Shown: positions 1 to 22,281, counted from the first letter of the stretch. The stretch is DNA of 32,000 nucleotides from an uncultured Chloroflexia bacterium (GCA_963718915.1 CAVRAI010000015.1:360001-392000), one strand, 5' to 3'. Program-made: numbers and translations. Notes: a model not told the origin generated them from the letters alone.

Positions 1-412
1 GACGTCGCTTCTCCTGCTCCGGGCTAATCAACGGAGCAATGGCGCCGGGAGGAAGATAGGCGACCAGCTCTGGCAGCAGTCGTGCGTACTCGGTGGCGTA
101 TGTTCCTGCGTCGCGCATCAATTCTGTCGGCGTAACAATGGCGAGCAGCGCCCGCAGGGCATCGATCAGTGGGCCGTAGGGTAGGGAACGATCTGGCTCG
201 AAGCAATTACCCTGGAGGGTGAGCATCGCGTCTCGGCGGATGCCCGTCTTGATTTCCGCGATCAGTCGCGACTTGCCAATACCCGCCTCACCAGCCAGTA
301 AAAGGGTATGCCCATGTCCCTGGCGCATCTGTCCCAGTTGGAGTGAGACGGACTCCAGATACGCCATGCGGCCAATCAGTCTTGGGCATATCGCAGAGTG
401 CGGAGCGGCCAT
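1..412 (-). CDS. AAA_16-type P-loop ATPase; N-terminal part of a large STAND/LuxR-MalT-like regulator (runs off left edge)
   Basis: Absent from the ORF track because there is no stop in the window. My own minus-strand translation from the ATG at 412-410 gives MAAPHSAICPRLIGRMAYLESVSLQLGQMRQGHGHTLLLAGEAGIGKSRLIAEIKTGIRRDAMLTLQGNCFEPDRSLPYGPLIDALRALL... The LIGR..E..L segment followed by the Walker A GEAGIGKSRL is the typical N-terminus of AAA_16 regulators. The frame stays open to the window edge. Confidence 0.6.
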   Translation of the reverse strand, partial: MAAPHSAICPRLIGRMAYLESVSLQLGQMRQGHGHTLLLAGEAGIGKSRLIAEIKTGIRRDAMLTLQGNCFEPDRSLPYGPLIDALRALLAIVTPTELMRDAGTYATEYARLLPELVAYLPPGAIAPLISPEQEKRR

Positions 413-610: not shown

Positions 611-634
611 TGTAGGGTGCGCCTGGGGTGGACG

Positions 635-3316
635 TCAGTTGAAGGTAAAACCGGTCGGCCCGCGCTCGCTCTCATGATCCGCGCGCTCCATATTCGAGCG
701 CCGGTTGATCTCGCTATCCACCTCCTCGCGTGGCCGCCCATACGCCTCACGCGAGAGATCGCGGATGCCCTCCGCCCGCTGCCCGACGAACTCCACGGGC
801 GATGGCTGGGTCTGCAGCGTGAAGACGGGTGTGCGGTGGCCCTGAATCAGCAGCCGACCGTAGGCGGTGTAGTCCGGCAATGTAATCAGGTGTTGCGCGG
901 CAATTGGCGACGGCGCGAGAATCGACTCCATGGCTACGGCATCGGTGGCTCCCAGGCGGAACGAGATGATGCTGCCGACGTTGCCCAGCAGCGCATCGCG
1001 AATCTCGCCGGTAAGCTGGCCCACGTGCTGGTTGGCGAGCGTCAGCCCGACATGATATTTCCGCGCCTCCGCCAGCATCTGCGCCAGGCTGTCGGTGGCA
1101 TAGTTGTGGAACTCATCCACTACCAGCGAGACATCGCGCCGCTGGGCGTCGGGCAGTTGCGCGCGGGAGAGCGCCGCCCGCAGAATCATAGGCAGCAGAA
1201 TCAGCCCCAGGAAGTTGGCGTTTTCACTGCCAAGCCGCCCTTTGGCCAGGTTCAACAGCACGATCTTGCCGTTATTCATCGCCTCGTTGAAGGAGAAGCT
1301 GCTGGTGGACTGGCCCAGAATCCGCCGCATAGTGCGGTCGGTGACGAAGTGCGAGAACTTGGACACGAGCCAGTCCAGAACCTCGCTCCTGTGAAAATCA
1401 TTGGTGGCGCTGATCTGATCGGTCCAGTAGCGTTTGACAATGGGATCGGTGACGTGCGGCAGCAGATGCTGTCTCACGAAGTGGTGATCCTGGAAGGCCC
1501 GCAAGACTTCCACCAGCGTATTCCCTGGCGCGCTCATCACGGTCAGCATGACATTACGCGCCCCATGCTCGAAGCGTGGCCCGATGATGCCGGTATGATG
1601 TGGGTCGTAGAGCTTGATGAGCAGGTCGATGAAGGCATTCACCATCATCTCGCGTTCATCTTCGTCGCCGGTTTCCAGAGGATTGAGGCCGACGGGGAAC
1701 GCCTTATCCGCGGGATCGAAGAGCACGACATCGTGCATTCTTTCCTCAGGAATCTTGCCGAGAATCTGCCCAATCAGATCGCCATGCGGGTCAATCACAA
1801 TGACCGAGCGGCCGTCCAGAACATCCTGCAGGATGATATTTTCCAGCAGGGTTGATTTGCCGGTTCCGGTCTGCCCGACGATCCAGCAGTGGTGGTTCCT
1901 GCTGGCCTGGGGTAGCGTGACGGGCGACATGACGCCATGCACGCGATTGACGCCCAGGTGAATGCCATCGCGCACGGGCGCGCGGAACGGCAGCATCTCG
2001 ACGATGCCCTGGCGCGGCAGCCAGCGGCCCGTATCGGGAAGCGCGAACAAGCAGGCGACCTCGCCCATATGCGCCAGGAAGAGCGGCTCGGTCTGGGTAT
2101 CTAAGGCTGCCCAGGGGGTGAATGCCATCGCGCGCATATTGGCACAGGCAATCGCAAACTCGGTCTGTGGCTGATCTGGCAGCTTTGCGGAGCGCGGGCG
2201 CATGCTTACAGCGCCATCCGCCACGGGGAGGGTGGGCGTTTGCCAGGCGGCTTCCGCGGTGAGGAGTCCCGGCCCGCCCACCTCGCGTGTGATCGTGGCG
2301 GCCAGGTTCTCGCCGATGCGCGCGGCGCCGCTCAACTGGATGCGCAGCCGGAAGCTGGCGATATTCAACGCGAGCGAGCGACGCACCTTCAACTGCTGCT
2401 GCCACTCGCGCAGATAGAGCATTGTCTCGCCATTGGCCGCCGTCGAATCGCCAAATAGCTGTTTCTGCCCGGCATTTGTGGAGGCGCCGAGGTGCGCGGG
2501 GACCAGCATCCCCTCATCCCATGAATCGTTGACGTGCGTCGGCGCCATACACAAGCTAAGGGCGGTCTGCCCCTGCTGGCGCAACATCACGTCCAACACC
2601 TCCTCGATATCGATGGCCCCCTGCCACGGTAGCGGCAACGGTTCCTGAGCGAACCCATCGATGTAGCGGCGGCGCACCTCCAGCGTGTCGCGGATGATGA
2701 AGGGCGTGAGCGCCTTCTTGACAGTGGCGCTGTCGGTCACTGGCAGAAAGTGGTACTCGGGGAGCGTTGCCTCCAGGAGTTGCTCAAGCTCATCGGCAAG
2801 TTGCTGCGCCCGGCGGCGCAACGCTGCCGGCGTGGTATGCCAGCGACTGACACGCATCAGCAGATACGCGCTGATCGAAGCCTGCCATTCGTTGGCCTCG
2901 GAGGAGGGTGTCACGATGTAGCGCAGTTCGAATGCGCCATCCTCCCCCAGCGGCGCTGTCATCAATTTGCTGCTGCGCGCCGCCATCAGCGCCTGACGCG
3001 AAATGCGCGCCTTTGGGCCGAGTGAGGCCAGTCCCTGTAACTCGAACGCCGCGTAGGCGGAACGCGGCGCGTCAGACGACGCATCCTGCGGCCTGGGCAG
3101 GTAGATGGGGTCGCGATCAAGCGTGTGCGCGCGGTGTTTGAACATCAGCTTCACCCTAATCTTCCGCTGGCTTCGTAGATACCTACGAAATGAAAGCGAT
3201 ACGATCATCGTGATCGATGTGATCGATGCGACGATCACTAGAAAGATGGTCTTTGCGATGAACTGTTCGTTCGCGGGCCGACCACTCTGCCGCGTCGGAG
3301 CAGGTAACAGGCTCAC
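635..3316 (-). CDS. Membrane-anchored VirD4/TraG/TraD-like (T4SS coupling-protein family) P-loop NTPase with a large unassigned N-terminal region
   Basis: 893-aa ORF with a GTG start. It has one N-terminal TM helix (IAKTIFLVIVASITSITMIVSLSF). The C-terminal half carries Walker A HHCWIVGQTGTGKSTLL, then SVIVIDPHGDL, Walker B VSLVVDEFHNY and KYHVGLTLANQHVGQL. This matches the TrwB/TraG-D_C arrangement. I recognise no motif in aa ~60-470. Confidence 0.75.
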   Translation of the reverse strand: MSLLPAPTRQSGRPANEQFIAKTIFLVIVASITSITMIVSLSFRRYLRSQRKIRVKLMFKHRAHTLDRDPIYLPRPQDASSDAPRSAYAAFELQGLASLGPKARISRQALMAARSSKLMTAPLGEDGAFELRYIVTPSSEANEWQASISAYLLMRVSRWHTTPAALRRRAQQLADELEQLLEATLPEYHFLPVTDSATVKKALTPFIIRDTLEVRRRYIDGFAQEPLPLPWQGAIDIEEVLDVMLRQQGQTALSLCMAPTHVNDSWDEGMLVPAHLGASTNAGQKQLFGDSTAANGETMLYLREWQQQLKVRRSLALNIASFRLRIQLSGAARIGENLAATITREVGGPGLLTAEAAWQTPTLPVADGAVSMRPRSAKLPDQPQTEFAIACANMRAMAFTPWAALDTQTEPLFLAHMGEVACLFALPDTGRWLPRQGIVEMLPFRAPVRDGIHLGVNRVHGVMSPVTLPQASRNHHCWIVGQTGTGKSTLLENIILQDVLDGRSVIVIDPHGDLIGQILGKIPEERMHDVVLFDPADKAFPVGLNPLETGDEDEREMMVNAFIDLLIKLYDPHHTGIIGPRFEHGARNVMLTVMSAPGNTLVEVLRAFQDHHFVRQHLLPHVTDPIVKRYWTDQISATNDFHRSEVLDWLVSKFSHFVTDRTMRRILGQSTSSFSFNEAMNNGKIVLLNLAKGRLGSENANFLGLILLPMILRAALSRAQLPDAQRRDVSLVVDEFHNYATDSLAQMLAEARKYHVGLTLANQHVGQLTGEIRDALLGNVGSIISFRLGATDAVAMESILAPSPIAAQHLITLPDYTAYGRLLIQGHRTPVFTLQTQPSPVEFVGQRAEGIRDLSREAYGRPREEVDSEINRRSNMERADHESERGPTGFTFN

Positions 3317-3355
3317 AGCGGCGATGTGGGCTGGGCGGTTTAAAGACTCAAAGAC

Positions 3356-3895
3356 TCAGGGATAGCGGGGGTAGTGCGTCGAGTAGCCAGCGCACGGCCG
3401 TGTTTCAACCAGAATGCGCCGCCCGTGTGGTGGCAATGGCAGCGGTAGGTGACTGGCGCGCTCATTGTCACGCGCTTTGCCGCCATGTGTGCCGCCATGT
3501 GTGCCGCCATGTGTGCCGCCATGTGTGCCGCCATGTGTGTTGGCAGGGTCGTCAGTGGGCTGGGCGCGCTCTTCGCCCGGCCCGCCGTCGCCGTTGTATG
3601 CCAGGTGGAAGGATTCCTTCATCATCGTGGCCTTGTCACGCGCCAGCCCCCATGTAAGTGAAAATGGCTGGTAGGAGCGACTAATAGCTACAGGGACGGT
3701 GATCGTCGCGTGATGTGTCTCACGCCGGATGCGGCGAGCCAGAGCGAACCCGGAAGCGTCGGCAATGCTTACGCCCAAACCATGTCGCTGACTCACTAGA
3801 CGGACGGATTTTCCTGATAGAGAAATATTACTTAAGGACATGCCACCTGTCAAGACTTGCTGCGAAATTGTGAAGTAATCATCAATTTTAAACAC
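3356..3895 (-). CDS. Hypothetical small protein with a (THGG)5 repeat; start uncertain
   Basis: 179-aa ORF from a GTG at 3895, ending 40 nt upstream of the ATPase gene on the same strand. The 3' two-thirds has GC-rich third codon positions. The 5' ~200 nt is AT-rich and contains a consensus-like promoter, so the true start may be the GTG at 3796 or the ATG at 3625 (MMKESFHLAYNG...). No family recognised. Confidence 0.35.
   Translation of the reverse strand: MFKIDDYFTISQQVLTGGMSLSNISLSGKSVRLVSQRHGLGVSIADASGFALARRIRRETHHATITVPVAISRSYQPFSLTWGLARDKATMMKESFHLAYNGDGGPGEERAQPTDDPANTHGGTHGGTHGGTHGGTHGGKARDNERASHLPLPLPPHGRRILVETRPCAGYSTHYPRYP
3479..3538. repeat. Perfect 12-nt tandem repeat, 5 copies (GCCGCCATGTGT)
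   Basis: Read directly: five identical units at 3479-3538. In the minus-strand ORF they encode THGG x5. The unit length is a multiple of 3. Confidence 0.95.
3825..3853 (-). promoter_or_regulatory. Sigma70-like promoter candidate (TTGACA-17-TAATAT) on the minus strand
   Basis: On the minus strand, TTGACA (3853-3848), a 17-nt spacer, then TAATAT (3830-3825). It lies inside the annotated 5' end of the 179-aa ORF. Confidence 0.35.
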
Positions 3896-3941
3896 CTCAC
3901 ATGCGCTTTTGACCGCTACTCTGCTATTTAATTCTCAAGTC

Positions 3942-3960
3942 ATTTTAGGAAATCTAAAAT
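3942..3960. promoter_or_regulatory. 19-bp perfect-arm palindrome ATTTTAG-gaaat-CTAAAAT; candidate operator
   Basis: 7-bp perfect inverted arms separated by 5 nt. It sits centrally in the divergent AT-rich intergenic region between the minus-strand operon and the MerR-type gene. Confidence 0.3.
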
Positions 3961-4001
3961 AATTGGGTAAAATCGAGTGGGAATACTAGCCTTCTTGCGT
4001 A

Positions 4002-4030
4002 TTGATACATTTCTCTCCATACGCTACAAT
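4002..4030 (+). promoter_or_regulatory. Sigma70-like promoter candidate (TTGATA-17-TACAAT) for the MerR/GAF/GGDEF-like gene
   Basis: TTGATA at 4002-4007, a 17-nt spacer, TACAAT at 4025-4030. It is about 115 nt upstream of the ATG at 4148. Confidence 0.5.
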
Positions 4031-4147
4031 ACATTCGTCTGCGAATAGCTGTTCAATTGCTCAATATATATGAAATGTGTCGCTCCAAATCTCAACCAGT
4101 AGTGTCCTCCTGTTCCAGACGCCCAGAGACTGTGAAAGGTGGCAATT

Positions 4148-6541
4148 ATGAGTTGGCAGACAATCTCCGACAAAATACATGAGCATTTGCGCGATACCGA
4201 GACCAGGCAACGGCTGAACGGGCGCTTTACATCGGCTCGCAATCAACTGACGACGACGATTGGCGAGGCGGCAAAGCTGGCGAATATCTCACCTGAGAAG
4301 GCCCGCTATGCGGAAGTGATTGGCATCCTCAGCCCCGCTCGCAGCCGTGAACACAAGACTGACGAGAACAAAGGCAGCCCGCATCGGCGCTACAGTTTGA
4401 GCGAGCTGAATCGGCTCATCGTCATGGGTGATCTCATCGAGCATGGCTTTTCGATGACCGATATTGCCCGCTTCTTATCACGCGAACGAAGCTCGACCGA
4501 TATTATTCTGGATAGCATGCAGGCGCCGGATCTGGCGGCCCGCCTTCGCAAAGCCGAGTCGGCCTATCTCCAACGGATGCTGATCCCCCGGCTCCTGTAC
4601 TTTGCGCAGTGTCTCCTGCTGGGCGATGTTGTTGACTGCTCGATTGCGCTGGTTCTGCCCGTTGCCACGGATGCTGCTGAGGAACGTCCCACCTTCCCCG
4701 TGACGCGCGCGGACGATCTGCCGCTTGCTGGCCCCTCGCTCGTCGGCTGGCACTCGCGCAGCCACCCGTACTGTGTCCTCTATATGCGCGAGCCACGGAT
4801 GGATGACGCGACACGCTATGAACTGCGCTCGATCGATGAGATGTGCGAGGAGGCAGGAGTCGCGAACGTTCACAGTTGCCCGACAGGCGCATATCTCCTG
4901 ATCGAGCCTGAGTTTGCCCACCTGCTCTATGCGGCTCCAACCGTCCGCGCGCGCGCTGATGCGGAGACGCAGCCAGAGGATACCGAGCGCGATAGGCTCC
5001 CCAACCCACGAACGGTCGCCTACCGTCTCTTGCGCTATTTACAAGCGCCGCCTGATGCCACCACAGGCGATGGCGACGAGGAGGACGATTATTCTACTGG
5101 CCAGCGCTATTCGTCGCTCGGTGAGGGCATGGTCTATAGCTCGCCCGAATTCATGAGCGACATGACGGGCGACAGGCTCCTCACGCAGATTACCGAGCTG
5201 GTCATTCGACTTGGGAATACGGAGAGCGCCACGTCGTCGAGTCGGCGTGGCCGCTGGATCTTCTCGGCCATCCTGATGCCAGATAATCTCTATCTGCCGC
5301 CGGGACAGCAGAGTCTGGTGGTCATGGCTCAAAGCGAAGAGTCGCCGCATACGCTGGGAATGACACGGCTCACCCCCGGCAAGAACGAAGGACTGTCGAC
5401 GCTGGCGGCGCTCAGCGGCCATATGTTGCTGCGTCGCGCAATCGAGTCAACCGATGCCGCCGTGGCCGACGCTGGATTCGAGGACGAGCCTGGCCCGGCG
5501 CTCGCGCTTCCGGTTCTTGGCGCGTATGGACGGGCGCTGGCGGTTCTCTATATTCGCTCCAAATACGACAAAGATACCTCCACCTACCAGACATTCACTG
5601 CGGACGATCAGATGCTGCTGCGCGTCATTGGCCACATCATCAGCGGCATTGTCTCTGGATACCGGGGAAACTACCTGGCGCGCGATGTGCTTGCCGAGAT
5701 GATCAAACAGCCGCGATCGGTTGACCGGTTCTTTCAGGAGTTTAAGAGCGCGAATGCCTTCTGGCTAGACCTGGAGGCGGCGCTGCGGGGCGCCTCGGAA
5801 GCGAAGGAAACGCGCAAGTCCACCTCCACATCAGCCAGCAGGGCAACCAATCCCATCACGTTGATTGCCATCGATATCGATGGCCACTCGAACATCTTCA
5901 ACGAATATGGGAATAACACCGCGCGCAACCTGCTCCGCGCCGTGGGACGACGTATCGCTGGCCAGCCGCTATTGGCCAGCGGCACGCTGATGAGCGCGTC
6001 GGATCGTACCAGGAAGAACCTCTACCATATGTACGGCGACCGCTTCTGCCTGTTGCTAGAGAACTTCTCGCGGGAAGAGGCCGAGTTGTATGCCGCGAAT
6101 CTGAGGGATCTGCTCAGCGGGGACTACACACTGGAGATTTCGCGGGCAACGGGAACCCAGGCAGCGCCAGTGACGAAATTCCGGATCCATGAGGTGAGCG
6201 TGCGCATCGCGCTCATCAGCTACGATAGCGATAGCCTGCGCAGGTTGCTCGCGCCAGTCGTGGCTGGTAGCCGCCCAATCCCCGAACATGTCGACGAGCC
6301 GGTTCAATACGTGATATCGCTCATCACCAATGCGCTCGACACCGGACTAAATCAGGGAAAGCAAGTTGGGCCTGGCGCCATTCTGTACCTCGACACAACG
6401 CGGGGGCTGTTTCGCCAGTTGCTCCTTGATGCCGATGAGAACAGGCGCCCCACGTCTGGAGAGCGCCGTTCGGCAGTGAAACCCACCAACGGCGTGTCGT
6501 CCGTCAGAAACGATCGCAACTCGGATGTGTTTCGGAGATGA
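4148..6541 (+). CDS. MerR-type HTH / GAF-like / degenerate GGDEF-domain protein
   Basis: The ORF track starts at GTG 4139, but the ATG at 4148 follows GAAAGGTGG (a ribosome-binding site). The N-terminus TIGEAAKLANISPEKARYAEVIGILSP...HRRYSLSELNRLIVMGDLIEHGFSMTDIARFL has the MerR HTH pattern. The middle region ...ALALPVLGAYGRALAVLYIRSKYD...FTADDQMLLRVIGHIISGIV looks GAF-like. The C-terminus ITLIAIDIDGHSNIFNEYGNNTARNLLRAVGRRI...LYHMYGDRFCLLLENFSREEAELYAANLRDLL...VSVRIALISY aligns by eye with a GGDEF domain in which GG(D/E)EF is replaced by YGDRF. Confidence 0.8.
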   Translation: MSWQTISDKIHEHLRDTETRQRLNGRFTSARNQLTTTIGEAAKLANISPEKARYAEVIGILSPARSREHKTDENKGSPHRRYSLSELNRLIVMGDLIEHGFSMTDIARFLSRERSSTDIILDSMQAPDLAARLRKAESAYLQRMLIPRLLYFAQCLLLGDVVDCSIALVLPVATDAAEERPTFPVTRADDLPLAGPSLVGWHSRSHPYCVLYMREPRMDDATRYELRSIDEMCEEAGVANVHSCPTGAYLLIEPEFAHLLYAAPTVRARADAETQPEDTERDRLPNPRTVAYRLLRYLQAPPDATTGDGDEEDDYSTGQRYSSLGEGMVYSSPEFMSDMTGDRLLTQITELVIRLGNTESATSSSRRGRWIFSAILMPDNLYLPPGQQSLVVMAQSEESPHTLGMTRLTPGKNEGLSTLAALSGHMLLRRAIESTDAAVADAGFEDEPGPALALPVLGAYGRALAVLYIRSKYDKDTSTYQTFTADDQMLLRVIGHIISGIVSGYRGNYLARDVLAEMIKQPRSVDRFFQEFKSANAFWLDLEAALRGASEAKETRKSTSTSASRATNPITLIAIDIDGHSNIFNEYGNNTARNLLRAVGRRIAGQPLLASGTLMSASDRTRKNLYHMYGDRFCLLLENFSREEAELYAANLRDLLSGDYTLEISRATGTQAAPVTKFRIHEVSVRIALISYDSDSLRRLLAPVVAGSRPIPEHVDEPVQYVISLITNALDTGLNQGKQVGPGAILYLDTTRGLFRQLLLDADENRRPTSGERRSAVKPTNGVSSVRNDRNSDVFRR

Positions 6542-21404: not shown

Positions 21405-22281
21405 TCATGCAAGCAAGGATACCCGAAAGCCATGCCGCGGTGTTTGCAGATTTCTTACGAACTGCGTAACGCATGAAGAGGCTCGGCGTCCCAAGCGAGC
21501 GACGAGCAACCGAATCATCGTCACCTTGATGAATGTTTCGCTCGTCTGCACCTTGCGCTCGTCGTCTTTGCTCATGCGCCGATTCCGGGACAGCCATGAG
21601 AAGGTCCGCTCCACGACCCACCGTTTGGGTTGCACAGCGAATCCACGTACGCCACGGGAAGTACGCTGCACCACTTCAAACTCCCAGTCACCCACGGTCT
21701 TGCACCAGTCGGCCAACTCTTGGCCGCGGTAGGCCGCGTCAGCCCAGATCTTCTTGAGCCGTGGGACAAAGTATTTCAGTCCGGCCAGAAGCCTGCGAGC
21801 ACCTTGCGTAACGTGCATATTTGCCGGGGTGACATAGTACGAAATCGGGATGCCAAGCGTATCGACAAGCAGATGGCGCTTGCGGGCCTTGACGCGCTTA
21901 TGTCCGTCGAATCTACTGATGCGGGCTGATTCCTCGACGGTCTTGACCGATTGCGTATCCATGATGGCTACGCTTGGATGGGCATCTCTGCCTACACGGA
22001 AGCGTTCGGCCTTGTGAAGGGCGCGAGGAGGAGACCCCAGGCGCCCTTGCGAGAGAATTGCCGAAAATGATAGAAGACGGTCTGCCAGGGCGGAAAATTG
22101 CTTGGCAGGTAGCGCCAGGGACAGCCAGCATGGAGAATATAAAAGATCGCGTTGAAGATATACTGCGCAGAGAATGACGTCGCGTTCGGCAGGTGCGATG
22201 GGCCTCGTGCAGGAATCGTTGCATGCACGCCCACTCCGCATCGGTAAGGTCACTTGGATAGGTCGTGTTTATGCAGTCCAA
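21405..22281 (-). mobile_element. IS5-family (IS427/IS1031-like) transposase gene, split over three frames; probably decayed
   Basis: Frame A (from 22281) reads MDCINTTYPSDLTDAEWACMQ...TRRHSLRSI. Frame B reads IFNAIFYILHAGCPWRYLPSNFPPWQTVFYHFRQFSRKGAWG. Frame C reads RVGRDAHPSVAIMDTQSVKTVEE...GHKRVKARKRHLLVDTLG...IWADAAYRG...KRWVVERTFSWLSRNRRMSKDDE. Together these give the DUF4096 plus DDE_Tnp_1 pattern. The terminal inverted repeats are only tentative (about 21437-21449 and 22308-22320). Confidence 0.8.

Follow-up and report, generated by a model that had tools for sequence, protein, structure and literature searches.

The window analysed here is a 32-kb stretch of DNA from an uncultured Chloroflexia bacterium (GCA_963718915.1, CAVRAI010000015.1:360001-392000); all coordinates follow its numbering, and L-numbers denote loci of relatives, among which L090 and L091 are the 90-92% relatives. 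An earlier note had described, between 635 and 6541, a membrane-anchored VirD4/TraG-type ATPase, a repeat-bearing small open reading frame (ORF), and a divergent MerR/GAF/degenerate-GGDEF gene, and all three ORFs were found at the places given there (635-3316(-), 3356-3895(-), and 4139-6541(+)). After revision, the ATPase gene is a shorter coding sequence (635-3145(-); 836 aa, ATG at 3145, stop at 635-637) without a transmembrane segment, and the divergent gene encodes 797 aa (4148-6541(+)). Because both the presumed 5' extension of the ATPase gene and the small ORF appear to be non-coding, the two genes are separated by about 1 kb (3146-4147, 1002 nt), all of it most probably non-coding. What is new at this locus is an orphan ATPase resembling type IV coupling proteins (T4CPs) and carrying a rare soluble N-terminal domain; the kind of motor is already known.

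The maximal ATPase ORF of 893 aa starts from a GTG at 3316, and the identical database protein (P0001, 100% identity) has 836 aa. Gene callers also place the start at the internal ATG 3145, and the start lies at or near this codon in 15/15 full-length homologues, of which none carries the 57-residue extension (0/15). A Shine-Dalgarno-like AGGGTGA (3157-3151) precedes ATG 3145, with nothing comparable before GTG 3316, and the frame is closed by an in-frame stop just upstream of the ATG in both L090 and L091. Relative to these two loci, substitutions at the first, second, and third codon positions numbered 17/16/17 and 20/20/24 over the 57-codon extension, which also showed 1-nt indels and a codon score of 0.05, and 37/16/84 and 28/20/70 over the first 300 true ATPase codons, in which no indel was found. 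Based on the homologues, the substitutions, and the codon score, the 57 codons with the transmembrane-like helix (3146-3316(-)) are regarded as a mis-read, non-coding 5' region. The third-position bias and the lack of indels in the true coding sequence indicate clear purifying selection; the gene is therefore not a decaying remnant, in line with the earlier view that it is not left over from conjugation.

The best 19-residue Kyte-Doolittle hydropathy of the 836-aa protein is 1.45, within a conserved hydrophobic helix of the ATPase module, and no transmembrane-like segment was detected in this protein or in 17 relatives sharing its N-terminal domain (best 19-residue hydropathy <=1.76, mostly in the same ATPase-module helix). 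Since the sole transmembrane-like segment lies in the non-coding extension, the ATPase is, judging from its sequence, soluble, and the helix is an artefact of ORF extension. The proposed membrane anchoring, which relied on a helix within codons 1-57 of the maximal ORF, is thus contradicted by homologue starts, stops, substitutions, and hydropathy. Long antisense or out-of-frame ORFs over 635-3316 (e.g., 617-1855(+); up to 412 aa) were considered shadow ORFs and not genes. Such shadow ORFs are typical of coding DNA with 60-65% GC.

The C-terminal half of the protein (686-1960(-)) was identified via Pfam, Foldseek, and hhalign as a T4CP/VirD4-type motor, i.e., a RecA-like nucleotide-binding domain with an all-alpha insertion (aa ~495-625). 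The motifs GQTGTGKS, VIVIDPHGD, LVVDEFHNY, and LTLANQHVGQL read in the earlier note are all there, and across 37 relatives their key residues do not vary (836-aa numbering): G424, G427, G429, and K430 of Walker A (GQTGTGKS, aa 424-431; 1853-1876(-)), D677 and E678 of Walker B (LVVDEFH; 1106-1126(-)), and Q706 and Q710 of the ANQ..Q motif, with R695 nearly invariant (>=90%). The description as a coupling-protein-type NTPase module was borne out by two Pfam T4CP families above their gathering thresholds (TrwB_AAD_bind, PF10412, E 3e-8, 33.4 bits, cut-off 20.5; T4SS-DNA_transf, PF02534, E 8e-8, 32 bits, cut-off 20.1) and by a search of the family profile against PDB sequences, in which TrwB ranked best (1.9e-7), followed by HerA and DotL. 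With hhalign, the motor was aligned at 8e-37 over 375 columns to Haur_5107, a T4CP-like protein of the Herpetosiphon plasmid pHAU01, but at only 3.5e-6, around Walker A, to the VirB4-like Haur_5109 of the same locus. The cut-offs of the NCBIfam TraD and VirD4 models were far from being reached (TIGR03743, 64.7 vs 366; NF045973, 42.8 vs 250; TIGR03754, 35.6 vs 647), and the same held for the VirB4 model TIGR00929 (29.7 vs 643). In the full-length AlphaFold model (predicted local distance difference test (pLDDT) 85, predicted template-modelling score (pTM) 0.73), the segment at aa ~495-625 is all-alpha and situated between Walker A and Walker B, an insertion predicted to be as in TrwB; Foldseek aligned this model to TrwB 1e9s with a template-modelling score (TM-score) of 0.65 on the target and a root-mean-square deviation of ~5 A. 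The sequence evidence places the motor in the VirD4/TrwB branch of the FtsK/HerA superfamily.

Among known systems, TrwB/VirD4 (PDB 1e9r, 1e9s, 1gki) is the best match for aa ~400-820, sharing the RecA-like domain, the all-alpha insertion, Walker A and B, and the ANQ motif. Unlike these coupling proteins, the ATPase has no N-terminal transmembrane domain, a soluble N-domain of ~395 aa standing in its place, and it has no relaxase or type IV secretion system (T4SS) neighbours. HerA, as found in HerA-NurA, SIR2-HerA, and DUF4297-HerA systems, belongs to the same superfamily and resembles the motor (TM-score 0.44-0.52 on the target; Pfam DUF87 match); however, this likeness is limited to the motor, is weaker than that to TrwB, and does not extend to the N-half, there is no NurA, SIR2, or DUF4297 gene, and the score for NF040819 was 14 vs a cut-off of 970.

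The N-terminal half (aa 1-~395; 1961-3145(-)) was modelled as a rare alpha/beta domain built around a beta-alpha-beta-beta-alpha-beta unit. It had been described as lacking a nameable motif, and no sequence-level family was found for it (no Pfam match, PF03135 included). An exhaustive phmmer scan recovered 28 cluster representatives among 1.84 billion, and its full-length carriers (~830-1100 aa) are long enough for this motor. At the sequence level, the N-half was covered by no plasmid record (72,556 plasmids) and by no viral record. A metagenome scan with five N-halves returned only two loci, an N-half profile search of a word-indexed database only three close fragments, and a contig scan with the full alignment, which was saturated by ATPase-only relatives from Patescibacteria, no new N-domain loci.

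The AlphaFold2 model of the N-half (pLDDT 81, pTM 0.81) consists mostly of beta-alpha-beta-beta-alpha-beta-type elements. In Foldseek searches against the PDB, the first 12 matches were without exception to TrwK/VirB4 from plasmid R388 (E 1e-5 to 2e-4, probability 1.0, TM-score 0.32-0.40), and the subsequent ones were unrelated ferredoxin-like and BBE-type domains (E >=2e-3). The full-length model was aligned end to end with TrwK (E 2.4e-15, 931 columns) at a low global TM-score, which probably reflects a different domain orientation. TrwK/VirB4 entries (PDB 7o42, 7o43, 8rtb, 8rtd) are the only solved structures matched significantly by the N-half model, and they likewise comprise a soluble N-terminal alpha/beta domain of ~400 aa followed by a P-loop motor. 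This likeness is weak and at the fold level only (TM-score 0.3-0.4), and the N-half may accordingly be called no more than VirB4-NTD-like (NTD, N-terminal domain); further differences are that the motor profile is closer to T4CPs and that VirB3, VirB6, and VirB8 neighbours are missing. Given the TrwK matches of the N-half and full-length models and the profile matches of the motor, the predicted architecture is VirB4-like, with a soluble N-domain preceding the motor, whereas the motor itself is VirD4-like.

Fold matches better than those to any solved structure were obtained for the N-half in BFVD, namely to ~550-900-aa proteins of the Bacillus phages Slash, G, and JL (E 5e-9 to 1e-6); a protein annotated as "component of type IV transporter system" was matched as well (E 3e-4). 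These phage proteins and phrog_5156 (824 positions), of which profile positions 384-818 match the motor at E 1.7e-56 in the same relative position, resemble the ATPase in motor position and protein length. They differ in that no sequence-level match to the N-half exists and in that they are phage- or plasmid-borne, in contrast to the chromosomal, syntenic gene considered here.

The orphan status of the ATPase was confirmed in the window as well as at 11 other loci of the N-domain family. With Pfam, the substantial ORFs of the 32 kb yielded no T4SS, relaxase, or integrase gene; a tRNA was likewise absent. None of the 11 other loci (0 of 11) had T4SS (VirB4 included), relaxase, or integrase genes within +/-8-10 kb. 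The Pfam content of the window comprises ABC transporters, an MFS transporter, GNAT, AraC, MarR, DinB, one insertion sequence (IS) transposase, MarC, an aminotransferase, a branched-chain amino-acid ABC system, a GDSL lipase, and a methyltransferase. The transposase (DDE_Tnp_1, 21405-22253(-)) is the only mobile-element gene in the window and lies 18 kb from the ATPase gene. Directly downstream of the latter, on the same strand and cut by the window edge, is the 5' end of a gene for a LuxR-type AAA_16/TPR/GerE (STAND-like) regulator (1-412(-)); its start shows 90% identity over 137 aa to a 624-aa (cut) product in L091, and equivalent AAA_16/NB-ARC-TPR-GerE genes are syntenic in L091, L092, L095, and L001.

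The N-domain family falls into two clades. In clade A (L090, L091, L001, L113, L084, L092, L095; ATPase identity 74-91%), the divergent MerR-like gene is kept in 6/6 testable loci, even where the identity of its product is down to 41-50%, and the flanks are usually kept as well: an ABC-F gene on the far side of the MerR-like gene, and, next to the ATPase, genes for a LuxR-type regulator, an ABM protein, and a hydrolase. In clade B (L086, L002, L114, L087, L089; ATPase identity 35-54%), the MerR-like gene is present in 0/5 loci and the neighbours are unrelated. Judging by this 6/6 vs 0/5 distribution, the association with the MerR-like gene is specific to one lineage, and the gene is no obligate partner. 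Of the "self-contained, regulator-coupled module" in the earlier note, the pairing with a regulator-like gene is therefore retained for clade A, but coupling does not extend to clade B and no operator was demonstrable; the self-containment was abandoned, as the ATPase is a single gene with no operon partner.

Several neighbourhoods of family members and more distant relatives contain signalling-type genes: a kinase-TPR and a sigma-70 gene in L086, a kinase-TPR and a CHAT-TPR gene in L114, a NERD-helicase, a PP2C, and an AAA+/nSTAND protein in L089 (35% identity), and two CHAT genes and a TPR gene around an ATPase-only relative on Bradyrhizobium p131_1 (L109). These kinase, TPR, CHAT, and nSTAND neighbours may reflect a link to signalling or conflict systems, or they may have come together by chance, the genomes being large. 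In PLSDB, 240 plasmids carried ATPase-only relatives at 24-36% identity, and 196/240 were non-mobilizable; on Herpetosiphon pHAU01, a 28%-identical relative lies two genes from a VirB4-like gene.

The 179-aa ORF (3356-3895(-)) is most probably not a gene; it would belong to the long intergenic stretch, or leader, on the side of the ATPase. It has no family match in Pfam, PADLOC, NCBIfam, or PHROGs and no tblastn match upstream of the ATPase in the 79-82% relatives. In the closest relatives, the similarity is split over two frames (L090) or the ORF is only 69 aa long (L091), and substitutions by codon position relative to these two loci are 33/31/29 and 28/27/31, with frame-breaking indels. Its codon-usage score is -0.015 vs 0.29-0.42 in 8/9 confident genes, and its GC content at third codon positions is 0.59 vs 0.70-0.79 in confident genes. 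A perfect 12-bp tandem DNA repeat (TGCCGCCATGTG, 5.2 copies, 3478-3539; TRF score 124, 100% matches) accounts for the "(THGG)5" peptide repeat, which is this DNA repeat in translation and unique to this genome. The C-terminal ~270 nt of the ORF, repeat included, are missing from L090 and L091, and the repeat segment resembles a strain-specific, variable-number-tandem-repeat-like insertion in the presumed ATPase leader. Absent families, frame breaks in relatives, flat codon-position substitutions, and poor codon usage thus speak against the repeat-bearing small ORF as a gene, and the 40 nt reported between it and the ATPase gene become 210 nt to the true ATG. In relatives, gene callers annotate small ORFs of 71, 76, and 161 aa in the same interval; these were considered as a fast-evolving homologous peptide and rejected, as tblastn showed them to be unrelated to each other and to the 179-aa ORF; an "LPLPL..G.I" tail, a loose likeness noticed by eye among small ORFs, was not supported either.

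Within the intergenic region, the AT-rich spacer remarked on earlier (3896-4138) has a GC content of 0.40 vs about 0.60 elsewhere, and promoter-like sites facing both ways are indeed enriched (6 found vs 1.1 expected). The candidate ATPase promoter (TTGACA-17-TAATAT, 3825-3853(-), 10/12 match) implies a leader of ~670 nt. Its -35 element CTTGACAG is invariant in L090 and L091, where the -10 element is TAAGCT, and this conserved TTGACA falls inside the 179-aa ORF. Since the invariant -35 and its -10 lie inside the false ORF, the sequence suggests that this region is a long leader of the ATPase transcript. Also inside the false ORF is a block of ~30 nt (GATCACCGTCCCTGTAGCTATT.GTCGCTCC, 3683-3713(-)) that is almost invariant between the window, L090, and L091, against 69-75% identity in the DNA around it; the block may act in regulation, as DNA or as RNA. 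A hairpin of the leader, UUUCGUAG-GUAU-CUACGAAG (3171-3190(-); 8-bp stem, 4-nt loop), is located ~25 nt upstream of the ATPase ATG; its folding z is only -1.8, and its stem is kept in L090, L091, and L084, with compensatory GTCGT/ACGAC in L092.

The candidate promoter of the MerR-like gene (TTGATA-17-TACAAT, 4002-4030(+), 10/12 match) is followed by a highly conserved 5' untranslated region of ~110 nt reaching 4147. Both are nearly invariant in L090 and L091, and the MerR-proximal region is still recognisable in L001 and L084. The DNA conservation at 4002-4147 exceeds that of the flanking coding sequences, which would fit a structured leader or an operator for autoregulation; Rfam gave no match in 3000-4300. 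The 19-bp palindrome described between the promoters (ATTTTAG-GAAAT-CTAAAAT) is present at 3942-3960 but is a weak candidate operator, as an equally good one occurs in 12% of shuffles and its arms are degenerate in L090 and L091. Neither candidate promoter has the 19-20-bp spacer with palindromic operator of a MerR-type target promoter, both spacers being 17 bp. Across clade A, the intergenic region is long in all loci (about 0.7-1.5 kb, 736-1480 nt) and conserved only at its ends, i.e., over ~180-280 nt next to the MerR-like gene and ~60 nt ahead of the ATPase start codon; its middle shows rapid turnover and unrelated spurious ORF calls.

The divergent gene (4148-6541(+), ATG 4148) encodes a protein with a MerR helix-turn-helix (HTH), a middle region of ~430 aa, and a degenerate GGDEF domain; the database protein P0054 is 100% identical and also has 797 aa. 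Substitutions by codon position are 26/14/87. The two terminal domains named in the earlier note were supported by Pfam, a PDB profile search, and the conserved motif YGDRF. For the HTH, MerR_1 (PF13411) was matched at E 1.7e-5 (25.3 bits, cut-off 21.6), and the family profile hit TnrA/GlnR-type structures in the PDB at 2.5e-7; the HTH (4244-4483(+)) is closest to the TnrA/GlnR subfamily and not to metal- or drug-sensing MerR proteins. TnrA and GlnR are nitrogen regulators controlled by glutamine synthetase. The GGDEF-like domain scored just under the Pfam cut-off (7e-5, 23.1 vs 23.8) and matched DosC by PDB profile at 5.6e-4. Its GG[DE]EF motif is replaced by YGDRF, in which G633 and D634 are invariant and R635 and F636 nearly invariant in 19 homologues; with this replacement at the active-site motif, the domain is degenerate and probably non-catalytic. 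A GAF domain in the middle region was not confirmed at the sequence level, with neither a Pfam match at E <=0.1 nor a PDB profile match.

Overall, the observations are best explained, with somewhat better than even confidence, by a soluble stand-alone NTPase of the T4CP branch that acts outside conjugation, has a VirB4-NTD-like N-half, and is preceded by a non-coding spacer of ~1 kb. By analogy with TrwB, HerA, and FtsK, the 836-aa protein would form a hexameric ring, and this ring would use the energy of ATP for moving or remodelling a polymer, with DNA as the probable substrate. In T4SSs, the VirB4 N-terminal domain serves as an assembly and docking platform, and the N-half, which would replace the membrane anchor of true coupling proteins, could for that reason mediate oligomer assembly or partner docking. 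The gene would be conserved, vertically inherited, and chromosomal in a Ktedonobacteria-like lineage, acting outside conjugation, secretion, and catalogued defence systems, and in clade A it is possibly regulated by the divergent MerR/degenerate-GGDEF protein. The names of relatives were the basis for placing the source among Ktedonobacterales, and it is probably a soil bacterium. This explanation is based on what the analysis established, namely the gene model, motifs, fold, purifying selection, and lack of T4SS genes nearby, whereas oligomeric state, substrate, N-half role, regulation, and physiological role are all inferred. What counts against it is that a T4SS may lie elsewhere in the source genome, which was viewed over 32 kb, and that this strain might, in formal terms, still translate the 57-codon extension.

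A T4SS or conjugative element elsewhere in the genome would turn the protein into a true coupling protein or VirB4-like ATPase acting in trans, which is consistent with the Pfam T4CP families above threshold, with the relative near a VirB4-like gene on pHAU01, and with reports that T4CP genes are frequently distant from virB4 (PMC12102498). This is nevertheless rather unlikely, as the family has no transmembrane domain, is syntenic on the chromosome with housekeeping and regulatory genes even between deeply diverged lineages, shows no relaxase, VirB4, or integrase gene within +/-8-10 kb in 12 loci, and does not occur with its N-half on the plasmids searched. That the gene is instead a functionless, decaying remnant of an integrated conjugative element is hardly credible: the orphan status and the one transposase 18 kb away would fit, whereas the intact ORF, the strong third-position bias with 0 indels over 300 codons, the invariant catalytic residues, and an ATPase identity held at 74-91% while the MerR-like protein drops to 41% do not. 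The TPR-bearing regulator genes allow for a motor serving as effector or sensor of a TPR/STAND/CHAT/kinase signalling or conflict system of multicellular bacteria under their control, given the LuxR-type gene directly downstream in the window clade and the kinase-TPR, sigma-70, CHAT, and TPR genes of L086, L114, and Bradyrhizobium. Such genes are, however, very abundant in large filamentous genomes, they are missing at L002 and L087, and VirD4, VirB4, and coupling proteins go unmentioned in a key paper on systems of this type (PMC7159879); this possibility is considered unlikely.

The defence-type function suggested in the earlier note, by which the ATPase, the small repeat protein, and the MerR/GAF/GGDEF protein would form a self-contained, regulator-coupled, membrane-anchored NTPase module for DNA handling or anti-phage defence, was checked with PADLOC. 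On the three proteins concerned, only mad8 on the motor (3.6e-20) and mad1 on the MerR HTH (2.4e-6) were matched, and no catalogued defence system was detected. The eight genes of the MADS operon include those for a methylase, a specificity subunit, and a kinase; the MADS profiles were built from HHpred-vs-PDB alignments, and detection of the system needs MAD6, MAD7, and MAD8 within <=10 genes (10.1101/2023.03.30.534895). Neither MAD6 nor MAD7 was found, and Pfam showed no DNA methylase, kinase, or specificity subunit among the neighbouring window genes; MADS was thus rejected, and given the PDB-derived profiles and the three-gene requirement, the mad8 match only restates a TrwB/HerA-like P-loop. 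While the generic mad matches, the divergent pairing in all testable clade-A loci, and the NERD-helicase, PP2C, and AAA+/nSTAND neighbours of the L089 homologue could be cited for such a module, its membrane helix and its small ORF are non-coding, the MerR-like gene is absent from the clade-B loci, and no methylase, nuclease, or other effector is adjacent, leaving it very improbable. It is also quite unlikely that the family, as a soluble, chromosomally fixed lineage, combines a VirB4-type N-domain with a VirD4-type motor because it branched off during, or survives from, the split between VirB4 and VirD4. It would then have been retained in Chloroflexota, have analogues in Bacillus phages and plasmids, and work outside secretion, for instance as a DNA or protein translocase connected to TPR/STAND/CHAT/kinase signalling of a multicellular, mycelial bacterium.

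Orphan VirD4-like ATPases number in the thousands in Patescibacteria alone, and the present family offers a clean case away from T4SSs: it is soluble and under purifying selection, occurs in free-living filamentous Chloroflexota, and should be tractable for biochemistry. The resemblance of the N-half to VirB4, if true, bears on the divergence of both signature T4SS ATPases. On the technical side, reading the longest ORF in GC-rich DNA had given a false transmembrane helix and a false 179-aa repeat protein, and both readings were exposed by codon-position statistics relative to close relatives.

The nearest motors outside the family (40-50% identity over aa 419-876) are those of VirD4-like, PF26449-bearing proteins of Patescibacteria (~800-940 aa). 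Patescibacteria, a proposed sister group of Chloroflexota, have 5,713 VirD4-like homologues, only 148 of which are near virB4, and exaptation has been raised (PMC12102498). A literature search on PF26449 returned nothing. Unlike the ATPase described here, these proteins have a different N-terminal domain, for which hhalign found no homology to the N-half except a linker motif of ~40 residues, and several bear an N-terminal transmembrane helix. In 80 patescibacterial loci (L004-L083), the commonest neighbours were xerC-like, gyrB, and gyrA genes, with roughly one locus in four for each, and clusters of T4SS type were not conspicuous. These neighbours hint at a chromosome-handling role of the patescibacterial ATPases; an FtsK-like role deduced from them does not transfer to the gene in the window. 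In subsets of the patescibacterial loci, a conserved protein of ~140 aa is encoded immediately upstream and a membrane protein of ~190 aa immediately downstream of the ATPase.

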